Positions 18,638-58,544 of a stretch of 64,000 nucleotides of DNA are shown one piece after another. The notes beneath the pieces were generated by a model that saw nothing but the letters and a program-made list of their open reading frames with translations, did no database searches and was not told where the DNA came from. Made by a program: the position numbers and the translations under genes. The stretch spans positions 682,001-746,000 of the forward strand of contig JAYWIR010000033.1 in NCBI GenBank assembly GCA_036172245.1. The letters are read 5' to 3'. This DNA comes from Raillietiella orientalis. Its lineage: Eukaryota. Every line of letters begins with the position of its first letter. Position 1 is the first letter of the stretch.

Positions 18638-18723
18638 TGGACACCGACGATGTACACAAAACACCACACAGAAGAAAAAGCGCTTTCCTACTACTCTTTG
18701 GGGAGTGAAGGAAAAACGTCCTC

Positions 18724-20126
18724 CAGCTGGCCGTGGAGGGGGCTGGCTGCAATTAGGCAGCCAGTTCCTCCGCGGCTCGCGCGAAGGCTACGTCATCGAT
18801 GGTGGTGTCGATGACGGATGCCGCCGCCGGCTCGCTCCCCTCGCTGTAGACTGTGTCAACAGAGGGGAGGTCGTCGGTAGCGGCGAGTTCTTTCTGGCAG
18901 CGTTCGGCAACATCGGGAACGCGTTCGACGACGACGCTGCACTCTTCAATTATCGCGCTAACCTGTTCTTTCTTCTTCTGTTGGTAGGCGATTTTTTTTT
19001 CTAACCTCCTCTCCTTCTTTGATTTTTTGGCCGTAGCCACCTCCCACCCAGGCTCCTGGCTTGTTCCCTCGACTTGTTCGGCGTTGTTCGCCGGGGTCTC
19101 GGGTGCGGCCTGGGCCTTGGGCGCGGTTGGCACAGCCTTCGCGGCAGCTTTCGCCGCCAGCCTTTTCTGCAGAAGCCGGGCGCGTTTTTTAAGGTTTCTC
19201 TTGGAAACCACCCGCACTGCTGCTTTTAGGCACACTTCCCTCGTGTGACCCATTGTGCCGCATACTTGGCACTGAACATTGGGACACCTCTTTTTGAGGT
19301 GGCCCGACGTATTGCAGAAACCACAGTATTTCGGCTTCCCCACATACCAGAGGTTGACGGTTTCGCCATCGACCACCAGTTTGTGGGGAAGAGTGCAGCC
19401 CTCCCGAACGGTCACGCGCGCAGCAGTGAGGCCGTGTTGCAGCCCCGTGTAGTCCTCGAAAGGACTAACTTTCGTCCACTGCGCGTGGACCGCTCCGTAT
19501 TCCTCCAACGCGGCGCGAACCTGTTCCTTGCGCATCCGGCCTGTAACACCTAACAGGTAGACCACCATGCTGCGGTCCGCCGTAATAGGGAGCAGCCTAC
19601 GCGTCCCCATCACCACGGGGGTTTTAAGCAGTCATTGGGCCAGCTCTGCTTGTTTGCAGATGACCTCAACGTACTGACCCCCGCTGCGGATGGTCATAGC
19701 GCTGAGCTCCTCCTCTTTCACATCGAGAGCGCGCATGCCCTTCGAGAAGGCGCGCGCGCTCTCTAAAGAATATAAATTGCCTACCTTGTAGAACAATGAG
19801 GGGTTGTACCCCTTTTCTACATAGGCCGACAATTCCGCCGCGGCTGCAGGCGATGGCGCCGACACAACGGCGCTCCACGCCCGCGCTGCAGCGGGGACCG
19901 ATTCTGTGGGGGCGGATGCCCCCACCTCCATCGCCTTCGGGGGCGACGTTGCCGCCGCCCCCTGGCTCTCCATTGCCTCTGGGGGCGGCGTTGCCGCTGC
20001 CCCCTGGCCATCCCTGGTGGTCGCGTCAGGCATTGCAGCCTGATCGACCACCGGACCACACGACGCTTTCACTGAAGGAGACCTCCTGGCACGAGGAGCA
20101 CCGATAAAACACGTCCACCCTGGAGC
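18724..20126 (-). mobile_element. E6: 5'UTR + ORF1 (with stops) of an element of the same family as E7; interrupted by E4
   Basis: ORF1 ATG 20033 (MPDATTRDGQG...) is nearly identical to E7 ORF1, with stops at 19632 and 18753. 5' end GCTCCAGGGTGGACGTGT. Confidence 0.87.
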
Positions 20127-20360
20127 ACGCAAGGCGTTCGATTTTCACCCGGATTTCGCCGGGGCGTTTATTGTAAAATAAACATTTACAAAGACGTGCG
20201 GTGGCTGGACCATTGCTCCAGCCACGCACGAAGAAACACAGAGCCTGCCGGGTCACCGGTTGGCAGACCGGAACGGTCCACCACGGCAGCAGGGGGAAGG
20301 GGGAAAAACAAAAAAACAAAAAAAAAAAGAAAAGAAAACTTGGGAGGGTAAGGGAAGGGA

Positions 20361-23300
20361 TCACAGTTGCTGGTGGGGCCGTTGCATCCTATGCAGGATG
20401 CCGACAAGCTCCTTCTGTATTCCTGGATCCAGGTGAGGCCATCGGGACGCCCTCCTCAGGAACTGGTAGGCTGGCTGGATGGCACACTGGTCGCGTTGTC
20501 CTCCCGTAGCCTTGCTCCAAGCGGTCACGATCCCGCGTAGGCAGCACAAAGCGGCTAACGAGGCTGCTGGCCGAAGGGCGTCGGCAACGAAGAGGGCTTT
20601 CAGTGCGTCCCTGGGGTTGCCGCAGGGGATTCCGATGGCCGCGGCAAAGCGAAACCAAAGGGGCCGAAGAGCAACACAATCCACTAGCAGGTGGGGGAGG
20701 GACTCCCGTTCCCCACATCTGACGCAATTGGGGTCCACCGCTCCCCAGGTCCAGTGGTGTCGGCGGGCGTTGCAGGGGAGTCCCCAGTGCTGCAACAGGA
20801 GAGCCGACTCCTGCCATTTTAAGGGGAGGGCGTAAGTGTTCATGAGCACCGGGGGCCACTTCAGATGTTCAATGGGAACATCGAGCAGCGCGCCCCAGCG
20901 CAGAAGTCCATTGGGAGGCGTACTCGGGGTCACAGCGTCTGTTAACTGGCCCGTCTTGCACTTTCCTATCTTCTTCTCCTTTCCGGAGATTGTTACTGTA
21001 ATCACCCACTTCGCCGCAACATCGCTGTCCAGATCTTCCATCAGGTAGGGCAGCGCAGCAGCGAGGGGTGTTCTTCCTGCCCACGCTCTCTTCTTTGGAT
21101 CCTCCAGGATCTCGCGGAGAGTGCAACTTCTGTAGCCCCCAAACAGGAACCTTCGTTCCTGTTGGGAGCGTTGCATGCCGAACTGTCCCCACGTTCGAAC
21201 GGTTTCCTGCAACCAGGCACTACCGTTCGCGGATAGACAGGTGATCCATCCTTGATTTTTCCTTGCCAGCGCAGCCACTTTCCGTAGCTGAAGTCCGCAT
21301 CGGTTGACGCGGCGACGGAGTGCTAGAAACGACGTCAGTCCCGTCTTGCCGGTTGCTTCCTGGAGAAGGAGACGTGCAGGGACGCACCAACAGGTGCACC
21401 ACAACTCTGGAACGAGTGCCGACAAGCGGAACTGGAGCTGAAGCTCCAGCCGCTCCAGCGTCAGGAGGCCCAGACCACCATCCCGACGAGGAGCGCACAA
21501 GTCCTTTAAGCAGACTCGGGCCCTCCCGTTGCCCCAAAGGGCGATACGGAGGAGGACCTTTGTCCGCTTTTTAATTCTCTCTGTGGGGGAGCAAACAAAA
21601 ACCAGGGGGCGAAGGGGAGGAGCCGCGAACGTGTTCCAAACCGCGGCCCGTTCAGGCAGGAAAAACCTGCCGCCTCGGAACGGGCCGATTGCTGTCTCTA
21701 CTTTTTGAAGGCAGCCGGACCACGCTTCCGCAGGAGAGTAGTCCCCCAACGGCACACCAAGGTACTTGAAGTACTTCACCGTGGGGATCCCCAAACGGAC
21801 CCAGTCCTGCTGCCCTGCCCACACCGCACCAACTGGCATCACGGACGACTTCGCCCTGTTCACCGTAAGTCCGGTTCCCCGATGCACCAGGTCGAAGAAC
21901 TCCTCGACCGCCGCAGCCGGGGTGGACATAGGGAGCAGCAGCAGAAGGTCGTCCGCGTATGCTGAAACGGCCGGCATACCGGCACAGTCGTGCGGCAGGT
22001 GCGCCAGAGTTCCCCTTTACGCTCTCAGTACCAACTCAAAGTAGGTACTGAAGAGCAAGGGGCTCAGGCTGTCTCCCTGCCGGATCCCACGCTGCACCGG
22101 CACGCCGTGCACGGTCTGTCCGCTGAAAGAAACGTTGATGAGCGCGTCGCGCCAGCAGGAGCGCAGATAGGCCACTAATGAGGCCGGGAAGCCCAAGCGT
22201 TCCAGAAGCTCCAGAAGGAGATTCTGGTCGACGCAATCGAATGCTTTCCGCAAGTCGATTGCGACCGCAAGGGCTCCCTTCCCCACCCGACTATCCAACC
22301 CCCTGCCGGCGCACGCACCGGAATTCTAGCTGCGCACCAAGCTCCTTTCATGTTGGAGCTCTAGCCAGGTGGAAGCGTGGAACAGGTTCGCCTCCATGCT
22401 TCGCCCGGGAACAGCATATGTCTGTTCCGGGCTGATGAAGATGTTGGCAACCCGTCCCAGACGCTCTGCCCACATCTTGGCTATGAACTTGGCGTCCGCA
22501 TTCACTATTGTGATGGGACGCCAGTTGTTCATGCTCCTTGGATCTCCTCCCTTAGGGAGGAGCCGCACATTTGCCGAACGAAACGAGGCGGAAACGTCAC
22601 CTGTTTCGCGTATCAGCAAGGTGAGTTGCTGTACCAGGGGGGTAAGCTCAGGCGCGAAATTTGATAAAACTCCGCGGGCAAACCGTCCTCCTTTGGAGCC
22701 TTTCGCCTCTTGAGCTTTCCGATGGCCGAGAGGATCTCGTCCATCGTGAAAGGCTCGTCGAGGGTCTTTCTCTGCTCCTCCCCGATCGCTGGAGCGCCTT
22801 CCGGAAGCAGGAGTCGTAAGACGTTATTCTCCGGAGGTGCCCTGGCATACAGGGAGGAGTAGTAACTCCGCAGCAGGCCGCGGATTTGGGCAGGTGTCGA
22901 GTGCTTCTGGCCCTGATCGTCCAGTAAGCTGGCCGATCCGGACTGCCAGGCTTGCCTCTCGGCTCCTGCTTTGTATTCCGCCAGCCTGCGGATGTCGAGG
23001 GTCCTGGCGTAACGACGGGCCTGCAGGTAGGCTCGTTCGTTACGGACCCCGGTCCCAAAACCCGTAGGTAGGCGGTGCAGAGGGAACTGGTCGCAGAACT
23101 TCTAGACCGACCGCTTGAAGCGGTCCCAATCATGTAGTGTCCGCAGCCTGATGCTCCGTATGAACGTGCGGAGATGTTTTGCCGCGTCCGGGAGCTTTAG
23201 CCAGTCCCCTGGAAGACGCCACGCTGACGAGGGGGGGCCCTTGTCGTGCGGATGGATCTCGAGGACTAGCGGGCGATGGTCGGACAGCTCGCACGGTAAC

Positions 23301-23792
23301 TTGCCGCGCCTGCCCACGCGAGGGCACAGGTGCTCGTCAAGAAACACGTGGTCAATGCTGTCTTCCATCCCCGGTGCACTGGCCAACAGATTACAGGTGT
23401 GCACCGCCATGCACACCTCGTTGACCAGGTCACGCTCGGGATTCTGCCCATCTGGTTTCAGGAGAACGTTGAAATCGCCTGCAACCAGATGGGCATTCCG
23501 CACGCCTGCTTCGGTCAGCCAGTCGCGATGGAGGGCAAGAAAAAACTCTTTCCTCGCCCTCCTGTTCATCAGGTCCTTGCCGCTCGGTGCGTACACGTTC
23601 GTGACGATCAGATCGATCAAGTCGGACCACCTGAGAGTCAGCTGTCCGACACGACCGTGATCGTCGAACCGCACGCCCCGAGCCGCGGCCTCGACGACTG
23701 GTTGAAGCAGGTAGGCGACACCGCAACTTTTCGCTCTCCCACACCTGTACCATAGCCGCCCTCCGGAGATCCGTTCGATATCTTGCGCTCGT
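20361..23792 (-). pseudogene. E7 ORF2, main part (N-terminus at 35571->35408), several stops and frameshifts
   Basis: NVYAP, GDFN and SDH (23102..23674); WRPI and DLRKAFD; AYADD through CVRCGE..HLLVDC (20361..21977). Confidence 0.88.
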
Positions 23793-25286
23793 ACAGTGCA
23801 GACGTGTTTCCGCGTCTATCCGCGCCAACGATCGGGCAACTTTGTGCCTGCGTTTTCGCTCGCACTTGTGTGTTCCTGTGCAATCTGCCAAGTAGCATAG
23901 TGCAACATGGCCAGTACACAGGATAGTGTGGAGGAGCAAGCCACTGGATGCACTTCAGCTGCACTTGAAGTGGCCGCATCCTCCGTAATGGTTTCCTCGC
24001 CCCCGGTGAGGAGTTACGCCGCCGTTACCTCCCAAAGACCAGGACCCTGCGAGGCGGAGTTCCAGGCATATGTGTCATCAGGATACATGCCTGCACTCCG
24101 TTATAAGGTCAGTGGGCCACTTAACGGGAGAATCGGTCGTGAGCTCAATGATGAGCTCGTCAGGATAGGCGTTCGCGAGGAGGAAGTCCTTGCCATAATG
24201 CCTGCTGGCAGGATGGAATATACGAAGATTCGGTGCAAGAACGCAGCACTTGTGCAGCGCCTTCTCCGTACGCCGTTGACCATCAATCACAAGGAAGTCC
24301 TACCTACCGCGATGGACGACTCTTTTGTCGTTCAATTGTGCGACATCGAACCGGAAATCTCCGACCGCGATGTCGTAAGTGTGCTGGCGAAGTTCGCCAC
24401 CGTGCACGCTCTGTGGAGGAGGCCAAATCCTCTAAAGGATTTCCCCTCTGTCCACATTGGACAAGCCTCCGCGCGGATCACCGTCGCGAATAGGCGTGTT
24501 GTGCCTGAGCAGCTGCAGGTGAACGGCACGGTCGTTCACCTGTGGTTCATAGGCCAGACTCGCGCGTGCGAGCAGTGCGGCAAGGAGGGGCACCGAATTA
24601 AAGAGTGCCCCTCTCCAAGATGCCGCTATTGCAAAGATTCCGGGCACGAAATCAAAAAGTGCCCGGTACTTGCAAGAAAAAGAGCCGCAGCGGAAATTCG
24701 TCGGGTTCAAGAGACCACTGCACGAAAAGCCGCAGCGGCAAATAAAAAACGTCGTCCGCAAAAACTCGAAAAAAACCACAAGCGATCCGCGGATAAAAAG
24801 AAAGCATCCCCGCCCGCAACGCCCCGAAAGGGGAAAGTCACGGCGGGGAAGCCAATTAAAAAGGGGCGCGAGGGTTTGACGCGTGCCGTGTCTTCCCTCT
24901 CTGCCGAACTCGCAGGCACCTCTCCGAGCCAGGAACCAGGAAATCTCCGTAACACCCTGGAGGGAAAGGTAGGAAAACAGGAAGATCTCAACAGTGCGAA
25001 GACTTCTTGCCCCGTTCCGTTGTCCCTTCCGAGTTCCGGACAGCCCCACTGCAGCGCAGGCCCCACTGCAAAGGCTACGAAAGCCGTAAAAAGCAGCGTC
25101 GCGACGAACAAAAGCACGCTGCATGCAGTCGCCCCATCGCCGACTCGGCAGGTTTCCCCAAGTCCCACAAGGGGTGGGGTAAGTTTATTTTTCTATAAAA
25201 ATACAAAATTTACATTCGCACTCTCATTCACTCAATACAAACATTTTACACTTGGGGGTCCTTGGGTTGCACTAGAGTTCTGCTTT

Positions 25287-28200
25287 TCAGGGGGGAATTC
25301 CAGCTGGATGGTCCCGGGCGTCGTCCTGGATCCTCTTCAGGATGAATCGGTACGTCCAGGCGTGGATCTTCCCGCAGTTCCTGATGCCGATTTCCCTCTT
25401 CAAGAGCCCTGGTAGGATCTCCATCGGTGGTGCGGCTCTCCTGGCTTTCCTCATTTTCCACCACCGCACAAGTATGGCGGTGATGAAGAGGGCTATGGTC
25501 GTCCTCACCATGGGATTGTAACAGGGAATATTACCATCCCCATGAAACATCCCGGCGAGGATCTCCATAACGGACTTGTTGGTAAGTCCTATGATCCTTT
25601 TCAGGATCAGCCAGTCATGCAGCAGTGTGGGACACGTCAAGACGTGAAGTCTCGTGTCGTCGTCTCCACATGCTGCGCAGTCTCGGTCTTCCCGTCTTCC
25701 TGTGAAGTGCTGCAATCGGGACCCACTCTGGATTCCTCCGTGATAAAACATCAGGAGGTCATCCTGGGTGCCCGGCGGAAGGTCACTTCTCCAGAGCGTC
25801 GCGCCGATCGCTAACAGGTTGAACCGTTCACTCCCGTAGCGTTCGGTGGCTTCCTGGAGGGCACTGGTGTCACGGTCGTTTTCTTGGATAAGCCTTCGGA
25901 GGTTTGTTCTGGTTACCCTCGACCATGCGAAGTCGTTGTGGTTGAACCACACTTCGCGGGTCCTGTGGGTAAACCTTCCTAACATCATCTCTGTATACCG
26001 AAGAATACGTGTTTGATGTAGGTAGCCTCCTCGCCTCCACTCCTGGATTTGCAGTAGGGTAACTCTGGACCGCTGGTAGATCCAGCTTCTCGTGTCCGGC
26101 GGGACAGGAAGCAACCAAGGGATCACCAGGATGGACTCGTCCTGCCAGAGTTCCCTGCTTCGCGGCACGATCTTGATTTGGTGCTTCCGCACCAGCCGTT
26201 GCTTCCTCGTCCAGGTTGGGTCGATTTTTTTCCATACGCCTGCTCGGCCTAGCAGCGCAGTCATCAGGCCTTTCGAGTTGTTAAGCAACAACGCGTAGGC
26301 CCTGTGCGCCGCATACGGCCAGTCATCCCAGTCAGTGGCAATGTCCAGGATGTGTCGCGTATCCATGATTTCCATGGAATGTGCAAGCGACTTCATCCCG
26401 GAACCGCCTTCTTCCCTGGGACGACACAGGGGTTTCAGTCTTACTCTTGGACGATAGTGGCCCCAGAGTGTTTTTCTTTGCAGCTTGTCGAACTCCCCAG
26501 TAGTGTCCTTGTTCATCCTCGCGAAGGCCGCCCCGAAGAGCACTTTCGGAAGGAGTACTCCGTTCCATATGTTGGCCTTTCGCTTCATCCCAAGGTCCGT
26601 TCGGGTGTACTTGGCTGCTTCCTTGGCCGTTTTCTTCAGGATTTCCTTCCACAGCAGCTTCGACGCAGAGCCGTCGCCGATGTAGACTCCCAGGTACTTG
26701 GCCGTGTCCACCGTACGGAATCCACTACCCGTTAGAGTGGAGAGATCCAGGATTCCGACGGGCAAAAGCTGGCTCTTCTGGGAATTGATTTTTAAGCCCA
26801 ATCCCTGTTCCATCTGGTCCACCACATCCAGAAACGCACGCTGATTTTTCTCTCCCTTGATGAAGAAGAGTAGATCATCGGCGTATGCCAGATGGGTAAG
26901 AAGCTGGCTATCGATGGTAATCCCGCTTAGTCGTCCGCTCTTCTCGATAAAGGACGACAACGCCTCCATATAGATGACGAACAGCATCGGACTTAGCGAG
27001 TCGCCCTGTCGGACTCCTGGTTCCATCCTGATTGCTGCCGTCTCCTGGCCGCTGATCTTGATCCGGCAGTACTGGTTCTGAAGTACCGCCCTCACGAAGT
27101 TGCTGAAGTGTTCCGGAAGCCCTAGCTTCTCCAGAACCTTCAGCAGCATCCCATGGTCGATGGAGTCGAAGGCCTTCTCCATGTCAGTGAACACCAGCAC
27201 CAGGTTCTCGCCGACGTATCGACTGAGTCCACCAGTGGCCTGGGCACACTTGACATTGTCCGACATGTGTCGTCCTGGGACTGCACATGTCTGGACCGGA
27301 GAGATCAGCCTCGACATGACCTTGCCTAAGCGGTTGGACCAGATCTTCGCCAACCACTTGGCATCGGAGTTTAGAATCGAGATTGGCCTCCATTGGGCGA
27401 TCTGGGTAGAGTCGCCTCCTTTCGGCAGCAATCTTATCCGACTCTCGTAGAAGGACTGAGGTAGTCTGCCTTCTTCCCGGATGCAGAGGGTCAACTGGTG
27501 GAACAAGCGCAGGTAGACGTGCAGGTACCGCTGATAGTGCGTGATGGGTACACTGTCAGGGCCCACTGCCACGTCCTTGCGAAGTTGCCTAAACGCAGTC
27601 TTCACCTCTTCTTCGGAGAACTCCTCCTCCAGTCTGTTCCGCTGGAGGTCGTCGGTCCTCTTCTCGAGATAGCTCAAGAAGGCCTGTTGACTAGAGCGAC
27701 AAAGCTGTTGTCGCCTGAAGTGTTTCGTGTAATGCCTGTGAAAGGCATCCACGATGTCCTCAGACGACTGTCGCTTTTGGCCGTCGTACTGGATGCAGAA
27801 GATATCTGGTCCCAGATTTCTCTTCTCCAGCATATTGACTTCCCCTTTTATGTTATTGAGGACGTATTGACTCTCGTACTGATCGAAGTACTTTGAGAGG
27901 GAGCGATCTTGGATGTTCAGCTCCCGGTACGCCTCTTGCCTCAAGCGCCTATCCCCGAACTGTATGTTCGCAAACAGGTGTATCCTGTGTTTCAGGCTGT
28001 CCCAGTCGGCGACTCTTCGGATTGTTGTTGCCCTCAGAATCGCCTCCAGGACAGCCTGATGTCCAAGATGGGTTTCCAACCAAGCGGGCATGCTGATGAG
28101 CGCTGCCCTGGTGCCTTGCCTCCGCCGAGGATTCTCCGTTCTTAGGGAAAACCGCACCAGGGGGTGATCGGACACCGTAGTCATAGTGTCGCGAAACCCC

Positions 28201-28805
28201 TGGATGCGGTTCCCAAGTTCGGTGCTGTGCAGGACTAGATCGATTGGCTTGTGGCTTGCTGTTCGCCAGACCAGTCCGAACTCCTCGGATAGCCGTCGAT
28301 ACGCCGTCCTTCCTCTGGCGTCTTCCGAATGAATGATCACATCCAAGATGTTGAGATCGCCAGCAACTATCACGACGTCCTTAGGGGCGACCTTTTGCCG
28401 GAGTGTTGCATGCAGCGCCTCCGCACAACGATGTTTTAGCCTGTGCGGCCTGTACACGTTCACCAGGATAAGGTGAACAGTCGCGGACCAGGCCAGTCGC
28501 ACGCCGATGATTCGTCCGGGTTGGGGACAGAACACTTCCAGAATAGTGGGGGCTAAGTTGTTCTTTATTAGCACCGCCACACCCTTCGTGTTCCGTTCTC
28601 CTTCGTTGACGAACATCTGCCCGTTGAATCGTCGTTCCATTCGCTGGCTTATCTCCAGACCCATCCTGTGGGTCTCCTGCAGGCACACGATGTCTTGTTG
28701 TGCGATGGTCCGCACAATCCTTCTTCTTTTTCCCTGGTCGACCACACCGTTTACGTTCCAGGAGGCGATGTTCATCCTCCTGGCGGTCGATAGGGAAGAG
28801 GCCAT
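25287..28805 (-). CDS. E9 ORF2, intact APE endonuclease-reverse transcriptase (1172 aa)
   Basis: Uninterrupted: SWNVNG, CLQET, NVY, GDLN, IDL, SDH; WRPISILN, DMEKAFD, GVRQGDSLSP, YADD, KYLG; CAACGDDDTRLHVLTC. Confidence 0.93.
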   Translation of the reverse strand: MASSLSTARRMNIASWNVNGVVDQGKRRRIVRTIAQQDIVCLQETHRMGLEISQRMERRFNGQMFVNEGERNTKGVAVLIKNNLAPTILEVFCPQPGRIIGVRLAWSATVHLILVNVYRPHRLKHRCAEALHATLRQKVAPKDVVIVAGDLNILDVIIHSEDARGRTAYRRLSEEFGLVWRTASHKPIDLVLHSTELGNRIQGFRDTMTTVSDHPLVRFSLRTENPRRRQGTRAALISMPAWLETHLGHQAVLEAILRATTIRRVADWDSLKHRIHLFANIQFGDRRLRQEAYRELNIQDRSLSKYFDQYESQYVLNNIKGEVNMLEKRNLGPDIFCIQYDGQKRQSSEDIVDAFHRHYTKHFRRQQLCRSSQQAFLSYLEKRTDDLQRNRLEEEFSEEEVKTAFRQLRKDVAVGPDSVPITHYQRYLHVYLRLFHQLTLCIREEGRLPQSFYESRIRLLPKGGDSTQIAQWRPISILNSDAKWLAKIWSNRLGKVMSRLISPVQTCAVPGRHMSDNVKCAQATGGLSRYVGENLVLVFTDMEKAFDSIDHGMLLKVLEKLGLPEHFSNFVRAVLQNQYCRIKISGQETAAIRMEPGVRQGDSLSPMLFVIYMEALSSFIEKSGRLSGITIDSQLLTHLAYADDLLFFIKGEKNQRAFLDVVDQMEQGLGLKINSQKSQLLPVGILDLSTLTGSGFRTVDTAKYLGVYIGDGSASKLLWKEILKKTAKEAAKYTRTDLGMKRKANIWNGVLLPKVLFGAAFARMNKDTTGEFDKLQRKTLWGHYRPRVRLKPLCRPREEGGSGMKSLAHSMEIMDTRHILDIATDWDDWPYAAHRAYALLLNNSKGLMTALLGRAGVWKKIDPTWTRKQRLVRKHQIKIVPRSRELWQDESILVIPWLLPVPPDTRSWIYQRSRVTLLQIQEWRRGGYLHQTRILRYTEMMLGRFTHRTREVWFNHNDFAWSRVTRTNLRRLIQENDRDTSALQEATERYGSERFNLLAIGATLWRSDLPPGTQDDLLMFYHGGIQSGSRLQHFTGRREDRDCAACGDDDTRLHVLTCPTLLHDWLILKRIIGLTNKSVMEILAGMFHGDGNIPCYNPMVRTTIALFITAILVRWWKMRKARRAAPPMEILPGLLKREIGIRNCGKIHAWTYRFILKRIQDDARDHPAGIPP

Positions 28806-28818
28806 AAAAGGGGAAGAC

Positions 28819-30633
28819 CTATTTTTGGGCCTTCCTGAGCTTCTTCTGTCTGAGAGAGCGTGCTCTTCCAGACAATGAAGAAGCAGCGGGCTTCTCGCTG
28901 CCGGCGTCACTCTCCGTACCTGTGAGGTCGGTAATTTCCGCCTCCTCCGTAGAGTGTTCCGCCTGCGCGATCAATTTTCGAGATAGCGCCTCTATCTCGA
29001 CCTTGGCGCAGAAGTTCGCCTTCACGTCGAGAAGCTGTTCCTCTAACTTCTCACGTTAAGCGACCTCCACCACCTGGTTGATGTTCTCTTGTGCAGTGCA
29101 GATCTTCTGCAAGATTTTCTCTTGCTGAGGACCGCTCTGCACCTCCATGATCTTCTCCGCCAGTGTTGCCAACTCCTCCGTAGTCTGCAGAGCCTCCTGC
29201 GACACTTTAGTGGCTTCCTGTCTCTCTTCCTTCGCGCCTTCCTGCGCTACCTCCATCTTCTCGCCTTCCTGCTCTGGTGCTTCCAGGATTTGAGGAGATC
29301 CTTGCTCCTTGACGAGCATCCTCCTCTTTCCTTTCTTTCCCACTTCTATGAAGCCGTCCGCCGACACCGGGACGGCTTCTTTCACTTTTTTCTGCCTTCC
29401 TGCCTTCTGAGGCTGCTCGGCCTCCTTGATGTTTCTCTCTCTCACGGGAGAGAGACCTCGAATCCTTCTGCAGTTTTCAAACTTCGGACAGCTCCATTTC
29501 GCATGTCCGTGTTTCTTGCAGTAGGAGCACACCTCCGGCTGCGGGCAGTTTCGGACTTGATGTCCTACTTTGCCGCAGCGGAAACAACGACACGTTGGGC
29601 AAGCCCCGGCCCTGTGGCCGAACTGCTTGCACCCGGTGCAGAATACCGGGTGTTGCCGGTAACGCACATTCACTCCCTGGGATTGTTCGTCAATAACGGC
29701 CAATCCAGGGATCACCGCTCCCTCCCTCAACTTCATCTTGGCGATCATGTCGCCAGAAAATATGTTTCCAGAGAAGTTCTGGAAATCAAGGTCCAGAACT
29801 TCCCCAAACTGCTCCAAGTAATTCCACACCGCTAGTTGCGGTGTGAGGATGGAGATGCCGTTTAAAAAGACGGGTGTGTATGGCATCTCGCCAATACCAC
29901 AAACCATCCGTCCTTGTATATTGATCCCCTTCTGGATCAATCGCTCTCTAATGTTTTCACAGTCTGTAAAGACTGTGAACCCGTTGTTTGATGCAATGAT
30001 CGCCTGAATGCGATCAAAGTCTATGTCCGTCTTGTCGAGGGACAAATAGACCTCCCTGATGTTATTAAATTTTATTAGCCCCGTCTTGAAGATAATGGGC
30101 TTCACGTTGGGGCCTATTTCGACCATTGGTCGGTCCACTTTTAGTACTTTTCCGCTAAGCGGCTTACCGAATTTCCTAGGTGGGTGGACACTCGCCTGTC
30201 CAGCCGCCACCGACGCATAAGAAAAGGGCCGCGACGCCGCAGCCGAACAAGATGGCGTCGCTCCCTGCACCGCGTGGACGCCCGCGGGTCCCGCCTGGGA
30301 CGCCACCGCCGCGGGCGCAAACCTCGACGGTGCCGCCGTTACCGCCGCGGGCGGCACCCTCGGCATCGCCGCCGCAGGCGCGACCTTCCCCGCCGCGGGC
30401 ACGATCCTCGGCGTCGCCGCCGCGGGCACGACCTCCGCCGTCGTCGCCGCGGGCACGACCTCCGCCGTCGTCGCCGCGGGCACGACCCTTGGCATCGCCG
30501 CCGCCGGCGCAGCAAAGCCCGCCGCGGGCGCGATCCTCGGCATGCCTGCCACCGCCTCGCCGTTGCCGCACGTTACCTCCATGGCTTCCATGGGGGACGA
30601 CGGTCTCTCCACTCCTCTTCTAGGTGCCTGCAT
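28819..30633 (-). pseudogene. E9 ORF1 (gag-like, three CCHC knuckles) with one in-frame TAA at 29056-29058
   Basis: ATG 30633; CTGCKQFGHRAGAC, CFRCGKVGHQVRNC, CSYCKKHGHAKWSC. The same frame continues after the TAA to TAG at 28819, 11 nt before the ORF2 ATG. Confidence 0.82.
30320..30550 (-). repeat. GC-rich coding tandem repeat (~27-bp core) giving Ala/Pro-rich units in E9 ORF1
   Basis: Repeated GCCGCGGGCACGACCTCCGCCGTCGTC on the + strand; protein VVPAATTAE VVPAATTAE VVPAAATP. Confidence 0.8.
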
Positions 30634-31479
30634 CCTGGCAGCTGGTCTTGCTGCACGGGACCACTGCAGGTCTTTTGCCGCGATCTCCTCGCCGCTTCTT
30701 TTTTTTTTTTGTTTCTTCTGGAAAACTTCCCCTTTCCGGGCACACACGAGCACAATGAACTGATTAAGTTGTCAAGCGCACAATACTTCGAGCCGCGGAG
30801 CAAGTTCACCGACTCGGCAGGAGAGGAGGGTTCTGCCGACTGTCAAGAAGGTGACTCCGTTGCCGCCTTTTAAAGGCGTAGCGAAAGCAACGCCCCCAGA
30901 GAACGCAGCGAAAATCCCGGAGGTTTCCGCAACTACTGTCGCGGAAGCCTCCGAAAATCGCGAAGGCGAATGGAAGGTTGTGGAGAGGAGGAAAGAAAAA
31001 TCTCCAAAAAAAGCTCCGCAACCTCCATCCCTGAGCTCTTCCAAAGGAAAAAGCAGTCGCGGGAATACGAAAACACGCGCGGCTTGTGCCTCTTCCAAGG
31101 AAAAAGCCAGCGCCTTCAACGCGTGCAAGTCCGTTTCTGTGACCGCCGAGAAGACCATTCCGGTGCAATCGGACGGATGCAAGCGCACGTCGATCGTGCG
31201 AGCATCAGACTCCGCAAAGGAGTCCGATAACGCAGCTGAACGACGCGTTACTCGCGCGGGAGCGAGCGCCCGCCGGGCTGAAGCCCTGAGGCGTGACACA
31301 CTCGCCGCGGAACGGCGAGTGCTAACCCCGGAACCCACAGGTTCTGCACCCGGGGAGGAGCACCCGATTACGTGCAGCACAGTTGAGGCCGGTGGCGACC
31401 GCGCCCTCCAGCCCGTCGTGCTGCTTACTGCCCGCGCGCCGGGTGAGGCGAGCACCACGGCCTCGCTTTCCCAGCCGTG

Positions 31480-34400
31480 ATGAGGGCAATCGCGTCTTCT
31501 CGTCGTGTTGCCGTAACGTCTTGGAACGTCAACGGGCTCCAACACGAGGAGAAGAGGCGACTAGTGGCTGACGCTCTGCGCGCCTTCGACTTGACGCTCC
31601 TGCAGGAGATTCAGAGCATCTCCGGAGAGCAGGCTGCCGAAATCGAACGGCGCGCGGGCGGAACGCTACTTTATAGGTGCGGCGTTGCACGTACGTGCGG
31701 CGTCGCTTTCCTCGTGCGAGGAACTTTGGCGGGAGCGGTGCGCAGCGTTCGTTTCGACACGGAAGGCCGAGTGGGACAGCTTGTACTCAAGTGGTCCGAC
31801 TCGATCGACCTTGTCGTAACCAACGTGTACGCGCCGAGCGGTGCTGGACGATGGGCCGAAAGGATTGAGTTCTTCGGTACCCTTCAAAGCCAATGGCTCA
31901 CTCGATCTCACCCTACTGTGGCCCATCTCATTGCGGGGGACTTTAACGTCCACCTGCTTTCCGAGAATAGATCCCACAAAAGGGAAAAGTTGCTAGCGGA
32001 AGAGATGTGCGCGTCCGTGCACGCGTGCAACTTGTTTGCTAGCGACCCTGTTATGGCAGCAACGCCGGACCACGTATACCTTGATGAACACTTGCTCTGT
32101 CGAGTGGGTCGGAGAGGTCCCGTGCCGTCCGTGCTTTCCGACCACAACAGGCTCGAGTTCGAGTTGCTCCCGCCAGGCAAGGGGCCTCCAAACTGTTTTT
32201 GGAGGATGCCGGCAGACTGGCTAAGCCACCCGGAGGCGGCTGAGCATCTTCGCCAGTACCTCCTCGGCTTTGCCATAAGTGAGCTCGAGGACTGGGACGA
32301 TCTGAAAAGATCGGTCCGCGAGTTCTGCTGCCGGTTTCACTTGCACCAGCTTCCGCGCGGCTTCGGAGAGGGCGTAGCCAACAGCAGAGATTTCCTGCAG
32401 GCCCGCTCCTTTTCCAGGCGCGCGGACGTTGGTCGATTATCCGAGTACAAGGCCAAGGCCGAGCGCCAGGTCTGGCAGTCAGGGGCGACAGTTCTGCTCG
32501 ACGACCAGGACCGGGAATGCTCGGCCTTAGCCGACGTGCGACGGATAGTCAGGCGCTATTACTCTTCTCTGTATGCAGAGGCACCGACGGAACGCAGCCT
32601 CTCCCGGCTGCTTCTGCCGATTGATGCACCTGTTGTAGACGAGGAGGAACGCGCGCGTCTTGATGAGCCCTTCACGGCAGAGGAAATTTCCTCGGCCATC
32701 TCGGGGCTCAAGAGACGAAAAGCGGCAGGCGAAGATGGGCTCCCCGCGGAATTCTTTCAGTGTTTTGCGGCGGAGCTCATCCCCCTGGTGCTCCAACTCT
32801 CGTCGCTGATGCGAGACTCGGGCGATGTCCCCGCCTCGTTTCGCTCAGCGAAGGTGCGTCTACTGCCGAAAGGCGGAGACTTGCGACAACTGAACAACTG
32901 GCGTCCGATCACATTAGTGAATTCGGACGTCAAGTTGTTCTCGAAACTTTGGGTGGCGCGGATTGGTAGGATCGCGGAATCCTTGGTAAGTCCGGAGCAG
33001 ACGTACGCTTTTCCTGGGCGGTCCATGGACGCGAATCTCTTGTTCATCCGCACATGGCTGCAATTGCAGCATCGTGTGGCGGTGGATCGTCGTGCGGAAG
33101 CGACGCCTTCGATCTCTCACCGACGGAGGCGCAAGACGCAAAGGGAGACACCGGGAGCCTTGGCGGTTGCAGTCGATCTGCACAAAGCTTTCGATTGCGT
33201 GAACCAAAAGCTTCTTCTTGAGCTTTTGGAACGTCTGGGTCTTTCGGCATCCCTGTTGGCATACTTGCGCTCCTGCTGGCGCCACGCGATTACATCCATT
33301 GTTTTCAGTGGCTGTCGCGTGTACGGCGTGCCGGTACGACGAGGAATTAGGCAGGGTGACAGCTTAAGCCCGCTGCTCTTCAGCATCTATTTTGAATTGG
33401 TGCTGGAGGCTTACAGGCTGACGCTAGCCAACCTGCCGAGCTCCTGTCCAGGTACGCCGGCCGTGGCAGCCTGTGCCGACGACCTGCTTCTCCTGTTGCC
33501 CATGTCCACCCCGGCGACATCGCTTGAAGACTTCTTTGAGTTGATTCGTCGCGGTGCGGGCGTGAGCGTTAACAGGAGTAAGTGTATGGTTGTTCCGGTG
33601 GGTGCGATGTGGGAGCGGCAGTCCGACTGGATTGGCCTGGGGATCCCCACGGGCAGGTACCTCAGGTCCCTTGGCGTGCCGTTGGGCGACCTCTGCATCT
33701 CAGAAGCGTGGTCGGACTGCCTTCGGAAGGCAGAGCGTGCACTTGGCCCGTTTTCAGGAGGCGAGTTCGTCTTGCCGGAACGGGCCTGCATCTGGAACAC
33801 CTTCGTTGCCCCCCTCCTCCGCCCCCTGTTTTTTGTTTGTGCCCATCCCTTCAGGAAGTCAAAGTCTGGGCGCAGCGCCTTCTACGCAAAGCGTTGTGGG
33901 GCGCTGCAAGATCCCGGGTTAGACTTAAAGAGTTGGTGGCGCCGCGTCAGGATGCAGGCTTGGGCATCCTCGACTTAAACAGCATCGAACTGCAGGTGCA
34001 GTTTCGCATGCTGCGGCTCTGTGCCAAGCTGTGGTGTACGCCGTGGTGCTTACCCGCACGCCTTATACTGAGGCGCTGCACGGGAAGCGAGGGACTGCTT
34101 TCCTTGCTACCCCACATTCGGCACACCAGAATAGGGTTTGGCTTCCCGCTGAGGCAGCTGTCCTCACTGCTGGAAGCCCAAAGCTGGATCTCCTGCCGCC
34201 CCATGAACATTAATGCATGGCGGCAGGAATCTTTTTCATCGTGGGCAGCTTTCGAAGGAACGCGCCCGGAAGATCTTCGACGCCTGCGACTTCTCCTCAG
34301 TCATCAAATGGACGAAGTCATGCAGGACAAGAAGTTGTCGGATCGTCTGGCCGCCACACCACTCGCCGTAGCGCTGTCTGCCCTCAGTGCAAGCAACGAC

Positions 34401-35054
34401 GGTTGCCTACCGGCGGAATGGGAGTTCTCCTGCAAAATAGCGGGAGTCAGTAAGCTCCTCGGCAGCTGGACGACAAAGGAGCTGGTGCAAGCCGCCTCAC
34501 CTCGGAATCGGGCGAAGGGACTGCTTCGGTGGAGCGAACATTTAAGTGTGCCCCCCGGAGAGATAGTGGTTCCTTCCGTTTGTTTGGACAGCTCCGTGTT
34601 CCCCATTAAGTGGAAACAAGATGTGCTGCTCTTTTTACATTGTGCATTTCACTGTAATAGGCAGCGAAGCATCGTTTCCGGGGGAGCTGCTTTGCCAAAC
34701 TGTTTAAGGTGCGGAGAGATCGAGTCTTTTCCGCACCTTGTGTTGGACTGCGGTGACCTCCGGGAACTGTGGCGAAGGCTCACTTCGGCCATCATGCCAC
34801 AAGGAGGCACTGCCATTGATGTGCTGCGGCGCTTCTTCAGCAGAAATGGACTTTCGGTTGGCGCGATTGTCGCAAACATGTGTTGCGTTCGCGCCATCGT
34901 GAAGGCCCGCTACGCCCTGGAGTTGTCATCGCAGCGAAGGCAGGCTCACCTGCTTGCAGCTCAATTCATGGAGAAGGCTTCAAGGTGGTCTCATCTTCGT
35001 GACAAGGTGAATGAGGACATCACCGGCATACATCGCCGGTTTACACACCTTTGA
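31480..35054 (+). pseudogene. E8 ORF2 (APE-RT-Zn finger), frameshift near 33845; YADD reads CADD
   Basis: SWNVNG, LQE, GDFN, SDH, DLHKAFD, GIRQGD, ACADD. C-terminus lies in the 33582..35054 frame with CLRCGEIESFPHLVLDC. ATG overlaps the ORF1 TGA (TGATG). Confidence 0.9.
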
Positions 35055-35585
35055 GAACGGCGTAATCCGGTGACCCCTGCGACCTCTCGCCCACCCATAC
35101 CCCGTCCCCGTTTGCTCGGTAAAATTTCCGGTGCCCATGCTCTTATCCCCGTGTCTTCCAGAGCGATCCCAAAGACCCTTATCCCGTCCTCCTTATTCAT
35201 TGTTTTTATTTTATTTTGGTTTCTTTGTGTTTCCCGCCCCCCCACACCGTTCACAAAACTGTTACTCTGGCCTGCGAGCCAGCAATATTCTCTTCATTCT
35301 TGTTCAGTCGTCGGTTGGGAGTTTGGTTCCCAACTGGTTTATTTTGTATAATTGCTTTTTTTCGTTATGTTATATGGAATAAACGCCCCGGCGTGACCGG
35401 GTGAGAAATCTCTTGCGCTTGTTCTGCAGAGATCACGTGGATCTCCTGCAGCAGCGCAAGGTCGTAGGACTCCAGAAGGGCGGCCATGTCTCTTCTCCTG
35501 CCGGCGTCTGTCATGCCGTTCACGTTCCAAACGGCGATGCGCAGACGACGGCGGGAGGAGATTCCCGGCATTACTGCTGGGAAGA

Positions 35586-37247
35586 TTAAGGTGTGGGGGA
35601 GCCCTCCTCTTTCGAGGCGGGCGGGATGTCCATGGGGGTTTCGGCCTTCTCAGGCACCTGAGGCACCTGTTCGGCCTCCACCCCCTCCATCCCCTCCGTG
35701 TCCGTGCGTGGGAGTCTCTCGGGCGACGGGTCCCGAGAGTTTCCCACGCTCATGGCACCCTCGCTTGCGGAAGCCTTCTCTTCCCCTTCGACGGGGGAGA
35801 CGAGCTTCCTTGGCTTTGTGGACTTACGTCCAGCCTTCTTGCGCGGTGCCGTGGAAACGGAGGCTGCGCTTCCGGCCTCCACCTCGGGGTCGGAAGTGGG
35901 GGACTCCTGAGGGGAGGCCGGACGCCTTACGGCCTTCTTGCCAGCCTTGGAGGGTTCTGGCTGCAACGAGGCTGCCAGCTCCTCCGGGGCTCGCGCGAAG
36001 GCTACGTCATCGATGGTGGTGTCGATGACGGACGCCGCCGCCGGCTCGCTCCCCTCGCTGTTGACAGTGTCAACAGAGGGGAGGTCGTCGGTAGCGGCGA
36101 GTTCTTTCTGGCAGCGTTCGGCAACATCGAGAACGCGTTCGACAACGACGCTGCACTCTTTAATTATCGCGCTACCCTGCTCTTTCTTCTTCTGTTGGTA
36201 GGCGATTTTCTTTTCCATCCTCCTCTCCTTCTTTGATTTTTTGGCCGTTGCCACTTGCCACCCAGTCTCCTGGCCGGCTCCCTCAACTTTTTCGGCGTTG
36301 GTCGCCGGGGTCTCGGGTGCGGCCTGGGTCTTGGGCGCGGGTGGCACAGCCTTCGCGGCAGCTTTCGTCGCCAGCCTTTTCTGCAGAAGCCGGGCGCGTT
36401 TTTTAAGGTTTCTCTTGGAAACCACCCGCACTGCTGCTTTTGGGCACACCTCCCTCGTGTGGCCCATTGTGCCGCATACTTGGCACTGCACATTGGGACA
36501 CCTCTTTTTGAGGTGGCCCGACGTATTGCAGAAGCCACAGTATTTCGGCTTCCCCCCATACCAGAGGTCGACGGTTTCGCCTTCGACCACCAGTTTGTGG
36601 GGAAGAGTGCAGCCCTCCCGAACGGTCACGCGCGCAGCAGTGAGGCCGTGTTGCAGCCCCGTGTAGTCCTCGAAAGGACTTACTTTCGTCCACTGCGCGT
36701 GGACCGTGCCGAACTGTTCCAAAGCGGCGCGAACCTGTTCTTTGCGCATTCGCGCGGTCACGCCTAACAGGTGGACCACCATGCTGGGGTCCGCCGTAGT
36801 GGGGAGAAGCCTGCGCGTTTCCATCACAACGGGGGTTTTAAGCAGTCGTTGGGCCAGCTCTGCATGTTTGCAGATGACCTCAACGTACTGACCCCCGCTG
36901 CGGATGGTCATAGCGCTAAGCTCCTCCTCTTTCACATCGAGAGCGCGCATGCCCTTCGAGAAGGCGCGCGCGCTCTCTAAAGAATATAAATTGCCTACCT
37001 TGTAGAACAATGAGGGGTTGTACCCCTCCTCCACATAGGCCGACAATTCCGCCGCGGCTGCAGGCGATGGCGCCGACACAACGGCGCTCCACGCCCGCGC
37101 TGCAGCGGGGACCGATTCTGTGGGGGCGGATGCCCCCACCTCCATCGCCTCTGGGGGCGACGTTGCCGCCGCCCCCTGGCTCTCCATCGCCTCTGGAGGC
37201 GGCATTGCCGCTGCCCCCTGGCCATCCCTGGTGGTCGCGTCAGGCAT
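35586..37247 (-). CDS. E7 ORF1, gag-like (553 aa), two CCHC knuckles
   Basis: Open from ATG 37247; CGFCNTSGHLKKRC and CQVCGTMGHTREVC. Stops a few codons before the ancestral CAGCAGTAATG junction at ~35569-35579. Confidence 0.83.
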   Translation of the reverse strand: MPDATTRDGQGAAAMPPPEAMESQGAAATSPPEAMEVGASAPTESVPAAARAWSAVVSAPSPAAAAELSAYVEEGYNPSLFYKVGNLYSLESARAFSKGMRALDVKEEELSAMTIRSGGQYVEVICKHAELAQRLLKTPVVMETRRLLPTTADPSMVVHLLGVTARMRKEQVRAALEQFGTVHAQWTKVSPFEDYTGLQHGLTAARVTVREGCTLPHKLVVEGETVDLWYGGKPKYCGFCNTSGHLKKRCPNVQCQVCGTMGHTREVCPKAAVRVVSKRNLKKRARLLQKRLATKAAAKAVPPAPKTQAAPETPATNAEKVEGAGQETGWQVATAKKSKKERRMEKKIAYQQKKKEQGSAIIKECSVVVERVLDVAERCQKELAATDDLPSVDTVNSEGSEPAAASVIDTTIDDVAFARAPEELAASLQPEPSKAGKKAVRRPASPQESPTSDPEVEAGSAASVSTAPRKKAGRKSTKPRKLVSPVEGEEKASASEGAMSVGNSRDPSPERLPRTDTEGMEGVEAEQVPQVPEKAETPMDIPPASKEEGSPTP

Positions 37248-37340
37248 CGCTGCCTGATCGACCACCGAACCACACGCCGCTTGCACTGGGGGAGACTTCC
37301 TGGCACGAGGAGCACCGAGAAGACACGTCCACCCTGGAGC

Positions 37341-39443
37341 GCACAAGGCGTTCGACTGCGTGGACCAGGAGCTTCTCTTGGAGCTCCTGAGTCGCATGGG
37401 CTTCCCACCCTCCCTACTATCCTACCTGCGCTGTTGCTGGCGCAACGCCATAATCAACGTCTCTTTCAGCAGTCAACAGGTGTACGGCGTGCCGGTGCGA
37501 CGGGAATGAGGCAGGGCGATAGCCTTAGTCCCCTGCTCTTCAGCGCCTACTTTGAGTTGGTGCTGAGAGCATACAGGGTGACTTTGACATCCTTGCCGAT
37601 CTCGTGCCTCGGTACGCCCGCCGTATGATCTTCTGCTCCTTTTGCCCATGTCTGCCCCGGCAGCTGCAGTCGAGGATTTCTTCGATCTGCTAAGCTGTGG
37701 GACTGTGCTACGTGTAAATAATGCGAAGTCATCGATGGTAGCGGTTGGTGCGACGTGGGTCGGATGGCCTGATTGGATCCGTTTGAATATCCCCACGGCG
37801 AGGTGCTTGAAGTACCTTGGTGTCCCGTTGGGGGACTATTCCCCTTCGGAAGCCTGGTCAGGTCGTCTCCGGAAAGTAGAGTTGGCGATCGGCCCGTTCT
37901 TGGAAGACAAGTTTCTCCTTCCGGAACGGGCCGCGGTATGGAACGCGTTCGCGGCTCCCATCCTTCGCCCCCTACTTTTTGTTTGCCCCTTCCACATGGA
38001 AATAAAAAAAAGGACAAAGGACCTCTTGCGCATCGCCCTCTGGGGCAAGGGGAGGCCTAGAGTCTTTTTGATGGACTTGTGCGCTTTGCGTCGGGACGGC
38101 GGTCTAGACCACCTGACGCTGGAGCGCATGGAAATTCAGCTGCAATGGCGAACCTTGACCATCGCAGCCAAGTTGTGGAGCACCCCTTGGTGGGTTCCTG
38201 CCCGCCTCCTCGCCAGACGTGCATCCGGAACCGGAGGACTTGCTTCTCTTCTTTTATGTCGGGGAAGGAAAATAAGAAGATGCGGCCATCTCCTCGGAAG
38301 AATAGCCACCCTGGCGAAGGTGTATGCGTGGATGATCTTGAGCCCCGTCAACTCCAGCGCATGGCTGGAAGAAACAGTTGGCACGTGGGCGATAGTGAAT
38401 CAAAAGATCCACGAGAGGTGGAATAGCCTGCGGCGGGGCAGATACTCCCGCTGCACTCTACGCGAGATCCTGGAGTGTCCAGCCAGGAGCACGTGGGCAG
38501 AGACGACCTGCCTAGCGACGGTGCTGCCCTTCCTACGAAGGGCCCTCGTCAGCAGCCGGACGCCGAGGTGGCAAGTCTCTTGCCGTATCGCATGCAGAGG
38601 AATGTTGTTGAGTGGTTGGATAATGGGACAGCTGGCGGACGCCACAACCCAGAGCGTCCTTTCGCAGGGACTGAAAAAATGGGGCGAGCTGCTCGGCATC
38701 ACGACGGATGACCTGAAGTGGCCTCCAGTGATAACCAGAACAAGGATCCTTCCCCTAAAATGGCAGGAGTCGGCGCTTATGCTGTTGCACTTTTGACTCC
38801 CCTGCAATGCACGCCGCCATCACTGGACACGGGTAAGTGTGAATCCCAACTGTGTAGGGTGTGGGGAGCGGGGATCCCTCCCGCACCTTTTATTTGACTG
38901 TGTTGCTCTCCGGCCTCTTTGGGAACGTTTCGGTACCACCTTAGGGATCCTGGAAGGTAGCCCTCCCAGAGACGTTTTTCGGCTCTTCTTCATGCGGGAC
39001 GCCCTGCAGCCAGCCGCTGTAATAGCAGCTCTCTGCTGCGTACGCGGTATTGTGGCAGCTTGGAGTGGATCCGACGAAGCAGAGGATGTCGACGGAAGGG
39101 GTGCCATGGAGTATGCAGCTCGCCTTCTGCGAATAGCAACTCGATGGCCCCACCTTGGAAATCTGCACAAGGACCTCGTCGGCATCCTGCAAAGGATGGA
39201 AGCTCCAAGTAACGGACATTGATCCCTTCCCGGCCCTCCAAAGAACAGTGGTTTTTTGCTTTAATTTGTCTTTATTTTTATTTTTGTTTTTTCCCCAACC
39301 CCATCCGCAGACGTGGAGTGTCAAGTCGGTGCGCAGACCGACCACCCGACAGCTCCATAGACTTATTGGCCGCAGCGGGGCCTTGTACCCCAAACACTGA
39401 CTGAAAGTTTTTCAGTAAACGCTCCGGCTTGGCCGGGTGAAAA
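37341..39443 (+). mobile_element. E10: 3' part (RT to 3' end) of a decayed element, the target of E6 and E7; apparently inserted into the E11 5'UTR
   Basis: Starts at HKAFDCVDQELLL; the YADD region is deleted; CVGCGE..HLLFDC. Degenerate 3' end AGTAAACGCTCCGGCTTGGCCGGGTGAAAA at 39414-39443. Confidence 0.85.
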
Positions 39444-58450: not shown

Positions 58451-58544
58451 CAGAGGGCCAAGCTACATCCAGCACCACCATCCTGTTGCTCTTCTGTAAC
58501 ACAGTGTCATTCGATAAAAGGAACTTTTTCCAGCCGCGTGAAAG

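Follow-up and report, generated by a model that had tools for sequence, protein, structure and literature searches.

The stretch of DNA analysed here, referred to as the window, comprises 64,000 nucleotides (nt) of the Raillietiella orientalis assembly GCA_036172245.1 (contig JAYWIR010000033.1, positions 682,001 to 746,000 of the forward strand). Its segment from 1 to 40.7 kb is a nest of L1-like long interspersed nuclear elements (LINEs), i.e., retrotransposons lacking long terminal repeats (non-LTR) and bearing APE, reverse transcriptase (RT) and CCHC motifs, in which the open reading frames (ORFs) are an ORF1 that encodes CCHC knuckles and an ORF2 that encodes an APE endonuclease, an RT and a C-terminal zf-RVT-like motif. 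Three of these elements are the main subject of the present study: E6 and E7, two copies of the same family, and E10, the LINE whose RT gene they interrupt in antisense orientation within the codons of motif A (K-A-F-D). GC content is approximately 60% in the nest (1-40000), with a CpG observed/expected ratio of 0.99 and no sign of CpG depletion in the repeats, while the flanking DNA (41000-64000) has a GC content of 33-52% and a ratio of 0.80. All positions are given in window coordinates, and those of the elements and target copies are collected in Table 1.

The two junctions were read directly from the assembly. On the E6 side, positions 20110-20141 consist of CACGTCCACCCTGGAGC-ACGC-AAGGCGTTCGA, followed by TTTTCACCCGG at 20142, and on the E7 side, positions 37324-37366 consist of CACGTCCACCCTGGAGC-GCAC-AAGGCGTTCGA-CTGCGTGGACC. 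The 11-mer preceding each 5' end is the antisense of AAGGCGTTCGA, which encodes K-A-F-D of RT motif A; on the E7 side it continues in frame into E10 (HKAFDCVDQELLLELL), in register with the motif A found in six other RT copies of the window, and the homology of E10 to other RTs, as determined by BLAST, starts at 37341. Self-BLAST aligned 18730-20141 with 35944-37355 at 93.8% identity over 1412 bp, with 87 differences between E6 and E7 in 1410 aligned bases. The similarity extends 15 nt past the 17-mer at the 5' end (4 nt plus the 11-mer AAGGCGTTCGA) and stops exactly there. This 5' 17-mer (GCTCCAGGGTGGACGTG) occurs exactly twice in the window, against 0.17 occurrences expected at up to three mismatches, and the exact 11-mer occurs three times, namely at the two junctions and at the KAFD site of element E4 (12706-12716).

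At the other end of E7, position 20142 is the true 3' end of the element, marked by the terminal motif AATAAACGCCCCGGCG-loop-CCGGGTGAAAA that is also found in five other elements. Because this family-wide 3' terminus directly adjoins the 11-mer, the latter lies at both ends of E7 as a target duplication, and, with X denoting a target copy, the arrangement is X-E7-X-E6, antisense to E10. A preliminary description of the locus had reported both junction sequences and a tandem pair that was antisense to E10 and similar without being identical, all of which was confirmed. The extents it had assigned to the two copies need revision beyond the junctions: only the first 1.4 kb of E6, its 5' part, lies in the window, and of the 17.2 kb spanned by E7, 11.6 kb belong to a nested element, E8, which itself carries E9, leaving approximately 5.6 kb of E7 proper.

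The boundaries of the elements are fixed by the ends that they share. The 3' terminus, AATAAACGCCCCGGCG-(3-4 nt loop)-CCGGGTG(A/T)NAAA, is common to six elements of several families, with constant arms and a variable loop, and none of the six termini bears a poly(A) or A-rich tail, the longest A tract being 4 A. Seven 5' ends have in common a GACGT core located 5-11 nt from the boundary. A 3'-terminal hairpin was predicted in the four termini that were folded, yet it was no stronger than in shuffled sequences (z -0.8 to -1.7), and on these predictions the hairpin-like sequence would be a conserved motif rather than a demonstrated structure. As a separate observation, the 5' end of the E6/E7 family, read in antisense, resembles the RT sequence just past KAFD (approximately 11 of 15 positions with one gap, by eye), possibly by chance.

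The two copies differ in their coding content. The E6 portion contains two in-frame stops in ORF1; the ORF1 of E7 is open from the ATG at 37247 to the stop at 35586-35588 (553 codons) and encodes two CCHC knuckles, being preceded by a 5' untranslated region (UTR) of 93 nt that begins with GCTCCAGGGTGGACGTG. The ORF2 of E7 is read in several frames. Pfam searches on E7 gave only Exo_endo_phos (E 2.3e-4) and zf-RVT (E 3e-4), both below the curated cut-off, and its APE and RT regions were located by tblastn with the protein of the sibling element E2 (62-68% identity). Exo_endo_phos and RVT_1 match the siblings E2, E4, E8 and E9, and zf-RVT is found in E2 (6e-5) below the curated cut-off. The 3' half of E10 is decayed; its reading frame is broken near 37600 and 38796. 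A 5' ribozyme was also sought, with no Rfam match at the gathering score across the window; two matches at the E7 5' end stayed below threshold, at 22 and 18.8 bits (cut-offs, 47 and 50), and were taken as chance.

How the two copies arose, and additional junctions

A pair of adjacent copies may also result from local tandem duplication, in which a single insertion is followed by unequal crossing-over or slippage between its 11-15 bp target duplications, yielding X-E-X-E-X. One X common to two copies is the exact product of such an exchange, and E6 and E7, at 93.8% identity, are more alike than either is to any other element of the window. The distinction relies on the premise that copies duplicated at the DNA level diverge without selection, whereas separate arrivals carry the differences built up between active sources under selection.

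Across the 434 ORF1 codons shared by E6 and E7, the Nei-Gojobori method counted 39 synonymous differences on 315 sites and 36 non-synonymous differences on 987 sites, corresponding to a dS of 0.135, a dN of 0.037 and a dN/dS of 0.28 (binomial p 2e-7). Differences per codon position amounted to 19/14/42, and ratios in the two control frames were 1.25 and 1.94. In 5000 simulated runs of neutral change, set to the 42 transitions and 33 transversions observed, 18.2 codons with synonymous changes were expected (standard deviation 3.7), against 32 observed (p=0.0004). In the 5' UTR, 10 of 93 sites differ, a proportion close to the dS of 0.135. Since the ORF1 differences are mostly synonymous, the two copies stem from different active source copies, and since approximately 28 synonymous changes remain even if all the non-synonymous ones are attributed to post-insertion decay, these sources were already at least about 9% apart at silent sites. 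Judged by this codon pattern, E6 and E7 are independent arrivals from a family that had long held the same insertion habit, and local duplication, the alternative that the preliminary description had itself raised, is unlikely.

The differences between E6 and E7 are also clustered, ranging from 0 to 11 per 50-bp window (variance 7.2, mean 3.0), with the densest patch in ORF1 (19493-19650 versus 36707-36864). This clustering fits either different source lineages or past conversion.

Additional copies were sought in a public run, X1 (Logan contigs, share of words 0.26), in which 38 contigs aligned to 19400-20900 at a likeness of at least 88%; the evidence presented here is drawn from the 6 of 15 loose ends listed, three of which are informative, and the 8 of 38 pieces listed. 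In one contig (a), the family 5' end and the 11-mer through 20141 are followed by CTGTGTTGACCAGGGGCTTTTGTTGGAGCT (D-CVDQGLLLEL), a flank identical to E10 37356-37385 at 25 of 30 positions and, by eye, closest to E10 among the RT copies of the window. Another RT copy was therefore entered at the same base, and this contig is a third 5' junction. In a second contig (b), RT sequence ending in ..GTAGATTTGCATAAGGCCA (also read as ..TTGGCAGTAGAGTAGATTTGCATAAGGCCA) stands directly before 20137, where TCGA-TTTTCACCC begins; it is the 5' half of an RT (..VDLHKAID) joined to a 3' end of the E6/E7 type, i.e., the left side of such an insertion. A further contig (c), at 20182, carries a 3' UTR variant lacking approximately 25 nt, which suggests that the copy at the 3' junction is other than E7 itself. 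Overall, three of three 5' junctions (E6, E7 and one contig) and two of two 3' junctions (E7 and one contig) lie at the same target among those listed; the two contributed by the run thus share the flanks that the preliminary description had considered might prove unrelated.

The run also contains a 317-nt contig (19549-19865) with 12 differences from E6; it carries 9 of the 15 E7 states found over this range, as well as at least two private differences. It represents a third family copy between E6 and E7, and a star-like family fits better than a local pair. Local duplication is contradicted by the dN/dS of 0.28, the third-position excess and the synonymous excess over the neutral simulation, as well as by this third copy, which is closer to E7 than E6 is. 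It also leaves the junction of contig a, in a different RT copy, unexplained, and 15 bp would be a very short tract for homologous exchange; we therefore regard it as very unlikely.

Spread at the DNA level would not need a tandem event: one ancient insertion into an RT gene could have been copied together with its flanks by segmental duplication or gene conversion among E10-type copies. The dense nest of transposable elements (TEs) makes segmental duplication and ectopic conversion plausible, and the additional junction contigs have RT flanks of the same E10-like type. Such a process, however, yields no tandem pair with a shared target copy, and its inserts would diverge neutrally, contrary to the dN/dS of 0.28 and the simulation. 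The flank of the third 5' junction is, moreover, 5 of 30 positions off E10, compared with approximately 6% overall for the inserts, 30 bases being a small sample. The spread of a composite is accordingly considered unlikely.

Probable site preference, candidate mechanism and known systems

For five other insertions in the nest, the targets are unrelated, those of E2, E4, E8 and E9 being read from both copies (Table 1) and that of E10, in a 5' UTR, from one flank. The re-use of the same base therefore belongs to the E6/E7 family and not to the whole superfamily. The absence of a common target among sibling families with approximately 60-80% identical ORF2 would also agree with a hot spot devoid of protein-encoded specificity, where the endonuclease is unspecific and local structure or breakage, or read-through transcripts annealing to any nick, determine the site. 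In this respect, UCGAACGCCUUG follows each resident copy and would be a perfect complement of the target strand once nicked, and R1Bm is known to use read-through 3' ends. An unspecific nick would nonetheless seldom fall three or more times at the same phosphodiester bond, and all five junctions share orientation and position, which renders the hot spot an improbable explanation.

Motif A of E7 is encoded by AAAGCATTCGA TTGCGTC, compared with AAGGCGTTCGA CTGCGTG in the target; the 11-mer differs at two synonymous positions, and the K, A, D and V codons of E7 are changed synonymously relative to the target. This recoding is compatible with self-avoidance.

With the same base, the same orientation, the independent origin of E6 and E7 and further junctions elsewhere all observed, the E6/E7 family is probably a LINE with target specificity, homing in antisense orientation into the codons of motif A in E10-type LINEs. 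The recognition of RT motif-A coding sequence put forward in the preliminary description is thereby supported, and the points that weigh against it are the following. The junctions are few, three at the 5' end and two at the 3' end, and each additional one comes from a single contig of one run, which may be of the sample that underlies the assembly; among the X1 pieces beyond those listed, family ends with other flanks could exist. Evidence on filled and empty sites is drawn from the window and this one run. Within the window, the E4 site (12706-12716, the exact 11-mer plus CTGCGT) and a near-exact KAFD site in the RT fragment E11 (56168, one mismatch) are unoccupied, and the closest sibling, element B (79% nucleotide identity to E7 ORF2), sits at an unrelated site in an APE gene. 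The target copy in the X1 contig with the 3' junction, AAGGCCATCGA, has two mismatches. The 5' half of E10 and the 3' end of E6 lie outside the window, so that the full X-E7-X-E6-X is not seen.

A further discrepancy concerns the 4 nt beside the 5' ends, which differ at two positions (ACGC at 20127-20130 and GCAC at 37341-37344) while the surrounding 28 nt are identical. Both differences are transitions, and the four bases might be twice-mutated target bases, bases added at the junction or a carry-over from the flank of the source copy. CpG decay was considered as a cause and is unsupported, given a CpG observed/expected ratio of approximately 1.0 and only 14 of 50 transitions in CpG context.

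Finally, no contig bridging the E6/E7 joint was present among the X1 pieces listed, and the joint is as read from the assembly. In so repetitive a region, 20126-20142 could be a mis-join of two loci sharing the short target. Only 15 bp are shared at the joint, however, both flanks are canonical element termini, and two mis-joined loci would still amount to two same-site junctions, which makes an assembly artefact extremely improbable.

Under the target-specific reading, E6 and E7 would belong to a low-copy, autonomous L1-like family, with an ORF1 bearing two CCHC knuckles and an ORF2 bearing APE, RT and a C-terminal zinc motif. Its preferred site would be the motif-A codons (..L-H/R-K-A-F-D-C-V-D..) of an E10-type sibling LINE family, always antisense to the host gene, and insertion would proceed by target-primed reverse transcription, as in other APE LINEs. 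The endonuclease would nick the catalytic Asp codon between its GA and its C on the RT-sense strand (AAGGCGTTCGA^CTGCG), this being the position of the first nick because cDNA would be primed by ..AAGGCGTTCGA-3' on that strand; the TTCGA-3' end would then prime cDNA on element RNA ending in ..CCGGGUGAAAA, and cleavage of the second strand 11-15 nt away would create the 11-15 bp target duplication. As the duplication restores the greater part of the site at either end of the insert, a second element could enter the rebuilt site, giving X-E7-X-E6-(X), as in other site-specific LINEs. We infer where the nicks fall and which of the two elements inserted first, and likewise the component that reads the site, which may be the APE domain or a read-through 3' end annealing to the nicked target. 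In R1Bm and TRAS1, the APE domain reads the target site.

The motif-A Asp is essential for catalysis by reverse transcriptases, and an insertion that splits its codon should therefore disable the copy entered. The preliminary description had gone further and called the family a hyperparasite that inactivates competitors. Since the family has its own ORF1 and APE-RT ORF2, it shows no dependence on the host element, and the 3' half of E10 is itself decayed; that live copies are entered, or that there is a competitive effect, goes beyond the data, and the inactivation of competitors is not supported. A broader interpretation, to which we assign a slightly better than even chance, is that of a long-lived LINE lineage specialised in antisense homing into the KAFD codons of a sibling LINE and self-protected by synonymous recoding, as a case of TE-on-TE homing and antagonism with a new target class. 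The target would be renewed at each transposition of the host family, because purifying selection on active host copies must keep it.

Among solved structures, the ORF2 of E2 matched human LINE-1 ORF2p best (E 2.7e-47), and R2 proteins scored 1e-11 to 1e-16. Its PDB sequence matches at E<=0.01 included no R1Bm or TRAS endonuclease chain, and the R2 proteins matched over the RT only. A search of 5.8 billion protein clusters returned 13 relatives of E2 ORF2, one of them 76% identical (P0001) and the others at most 28%, and matches in the protein atlas were limited to generic APE-RT clusters. Metagenome scans returned 0 loci for the shared 3'-terminal motif and 0 loci for E7 ORF1. The lineage of LINEs in this nest is poorly sampled in databases.

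Target-specific non-LTR elements have been described for several target classes, one account listing rRNA, tRNA and small nuclear RNA genes, microsatellites, telomeres and transposons (PMC5035012); Tx1 and R1 are given as the APE-encoding target-specific clades in another (PMC4640811). The elements of the nest have the L1-like combination of an ORF2 with N-terminal APE plus RT, a CCHC motif in ORF2 and a nucleic-acid-binding ORF1, but depart from L1-like elements in their lack of a poly(A) or A-rich 3' tail, and E6 and E7 show the feature by which a target-specific LINE is recognised, that is, independent copies at the same nucleotide and in the same orientation.

The Tx1 group, within the L1 superclade, comprises Tx1L, which inserts in the Tx1D transposon, and Keno, Mutsu, Kibi, Koshi and Dewa, which insert in multicopy RNA genes or microsatellites. 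The E6/E7 family resembles this group in the proximity of the sibling E2 ORF2 to L1 ORF2p among solved structures, in the CCHC knuckles of ORF1, in the use of one base of a repeated target in fixed orientation, and in head-to-tail copies that share a target copy; as for Tx1L, the target is itself a mobile element. Unlike the group, its target is the sequence encoding RT motif A of a sibling LINE, entered in antisense, instead of a DNA transposon, RNA gene or microsatellite, and its 3' end lacks poly(A) and has a conserved GC hairpin-like motif plus TGAAAA. R1 and R2 target 28S rDNA, and TRAS and SART target telomeric repeats. These systems share with E6/E7 a conserved, multicopy 'safe' target, a precise nick and the tandem or repeated use of an ever-regenerated site; they belong to different clades, however, and the E6/E7 target is the gene of another parasite rather than a host gene array. 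The R1/Tx1-type label attached to E6 and E7 is to be taken as an analogy of behaviour, not as a clade placement. The ordinary nested LINEs of the window belong to the same superfamily and have the same termini and 7-13 bp target duplications, but their sites all differ, and only the E6/E7 family re-uses one base.

No LINE homing to the codons of a LINE catalytic motif was described in the literature searched, in which subscription journals and Repbase Reports are thinly covered, so that this negative is provisional. The behaviour of target-specific APE LINEs is already known; what appears, provisionally, to be new is the target, namely the catalytic-motif coding sequence of sibling LINEs, in antisense. 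If this is true, the target of the family would be the catalytic motif of a rival LINE, kept constant by selection on the rival. Target-specific LINEs are natural models for programmable, site-specific, RNA-templated insertion and for the finding of 'safe' landing sites, and the family, if confirmed, would offer a concrete system for TE-TE competition and an APE endonuclease whose recognition site is long and defined.

Other elements of the nest and flanking features

Table 1. Elements, target copies and shared termini in the window (TSD, target-site duplication).
Feature	Position	Strand	Description
E6	18726..20126	-	5' UTR and ORF1 codons 1-434; 93.8% identity to the 5' part of E7
Middle target copy (X)	20127..20141	.	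ACGC + AAGGCGTTCGA (+ strand); separates the 5' end of E6 from the 3' end of E7
E7, 3' part	20142..23792	-	3' terminus (..CCGGGTGAAAA), 3' UTR, ORF2 zf-RVT, RT and most of APE
E8	23793..35408	+	Sibling family, nested in the APE region of E7; TSD TCTTGCGCTYGT at 23781-23792 and 35411-35422
E9	25153-30808	-	Nested in E8; TSD CCTGCCGAGTCGG
E7, 5' part	35409..37340	-	First ~66 APE codons, open ORF1, 5' UTR
Right target copy (X)	37341..37355	.	GCAC + AAGGCGTTCGA; E7 5' flank and E10 codons (L)H-K-A-F-D
E10	37341..39443	+	Host LINE, 3' half; begins at RT motif A and ends with the canonical 3' terminus
KAFD codons of E7 itself	22237..22247	-	AAAGCATTCGA
E5	5' end at 18725, 5' motif 18710-18725		Full-length 5' end; cuts E6
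E4	10516-16424	-	Interrupts E5; TSD TTTMAAT
B	~1746-4007 and 9511-10173	+	Interrupts E5
E2	4008-9510	-	Splits B; TSD GCAGTGCCGAC
C	39444 onward	+	Carries E10 in its 5' UTR
Six 3' termini	20142-20201, 4008-4067, 10114-10173, 10516-10575, 35349-35408, 39384-39443		Shared terminal motif

What remains of E5 and E6, together with the 5' half of E10, must be located to the left of the window. E9, nested within E8, belongs to a distinct LINE family with approximately 29% protein identity to the others; its ORFs are open (ORF1, 571 codons; ORF2, 1227 codons, with APE and RT) and it is flanked by a perfect 13-bp target duplication, features in keeping with what may be a recent, intact copy.

At the left margin of the nest, an element on the minus strand, A, with a full-length 5' end and an ORF1 at 8-1733, abuts the 5'-truncated B head to head (1733-1761), B beginning at about residue 300 of ORF2. 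This layout would fit a twin-priming 5' inversion of a single element, the rest of A lying beyond the window. At the right margin, element C (plus strand, 39444-40650), which has an ORF1, seems to end with no ORF2 beside a sharp drop in GC content from approximately 57% to 33% (40.7-42 kb), as would be expected of a LINE truncated at its 3' end or of another rearrangement where the nest stops.

The less GC-rich flanking DNA contains at least one host exon, resembling GDI/Rab-escort proteins, at 45636-46100 (plus strand, Pfam E 5e-14), a weak CENP-B_N (pogo-like) match at 58542-58997 (plus strand) and E11, an isolated RT fragment at 55371-56435 (plus strand). Within the nest, the APE coding sequence around AHLIAGD(F/L)N forms a near-palindrome, CACCTGATAGC..GCTATCAGGTG (E2, 7390-7440; E5, 16425-16452 and 10490-10519), and the insertion point of E4 is the centre of this near-palindrome in E5.

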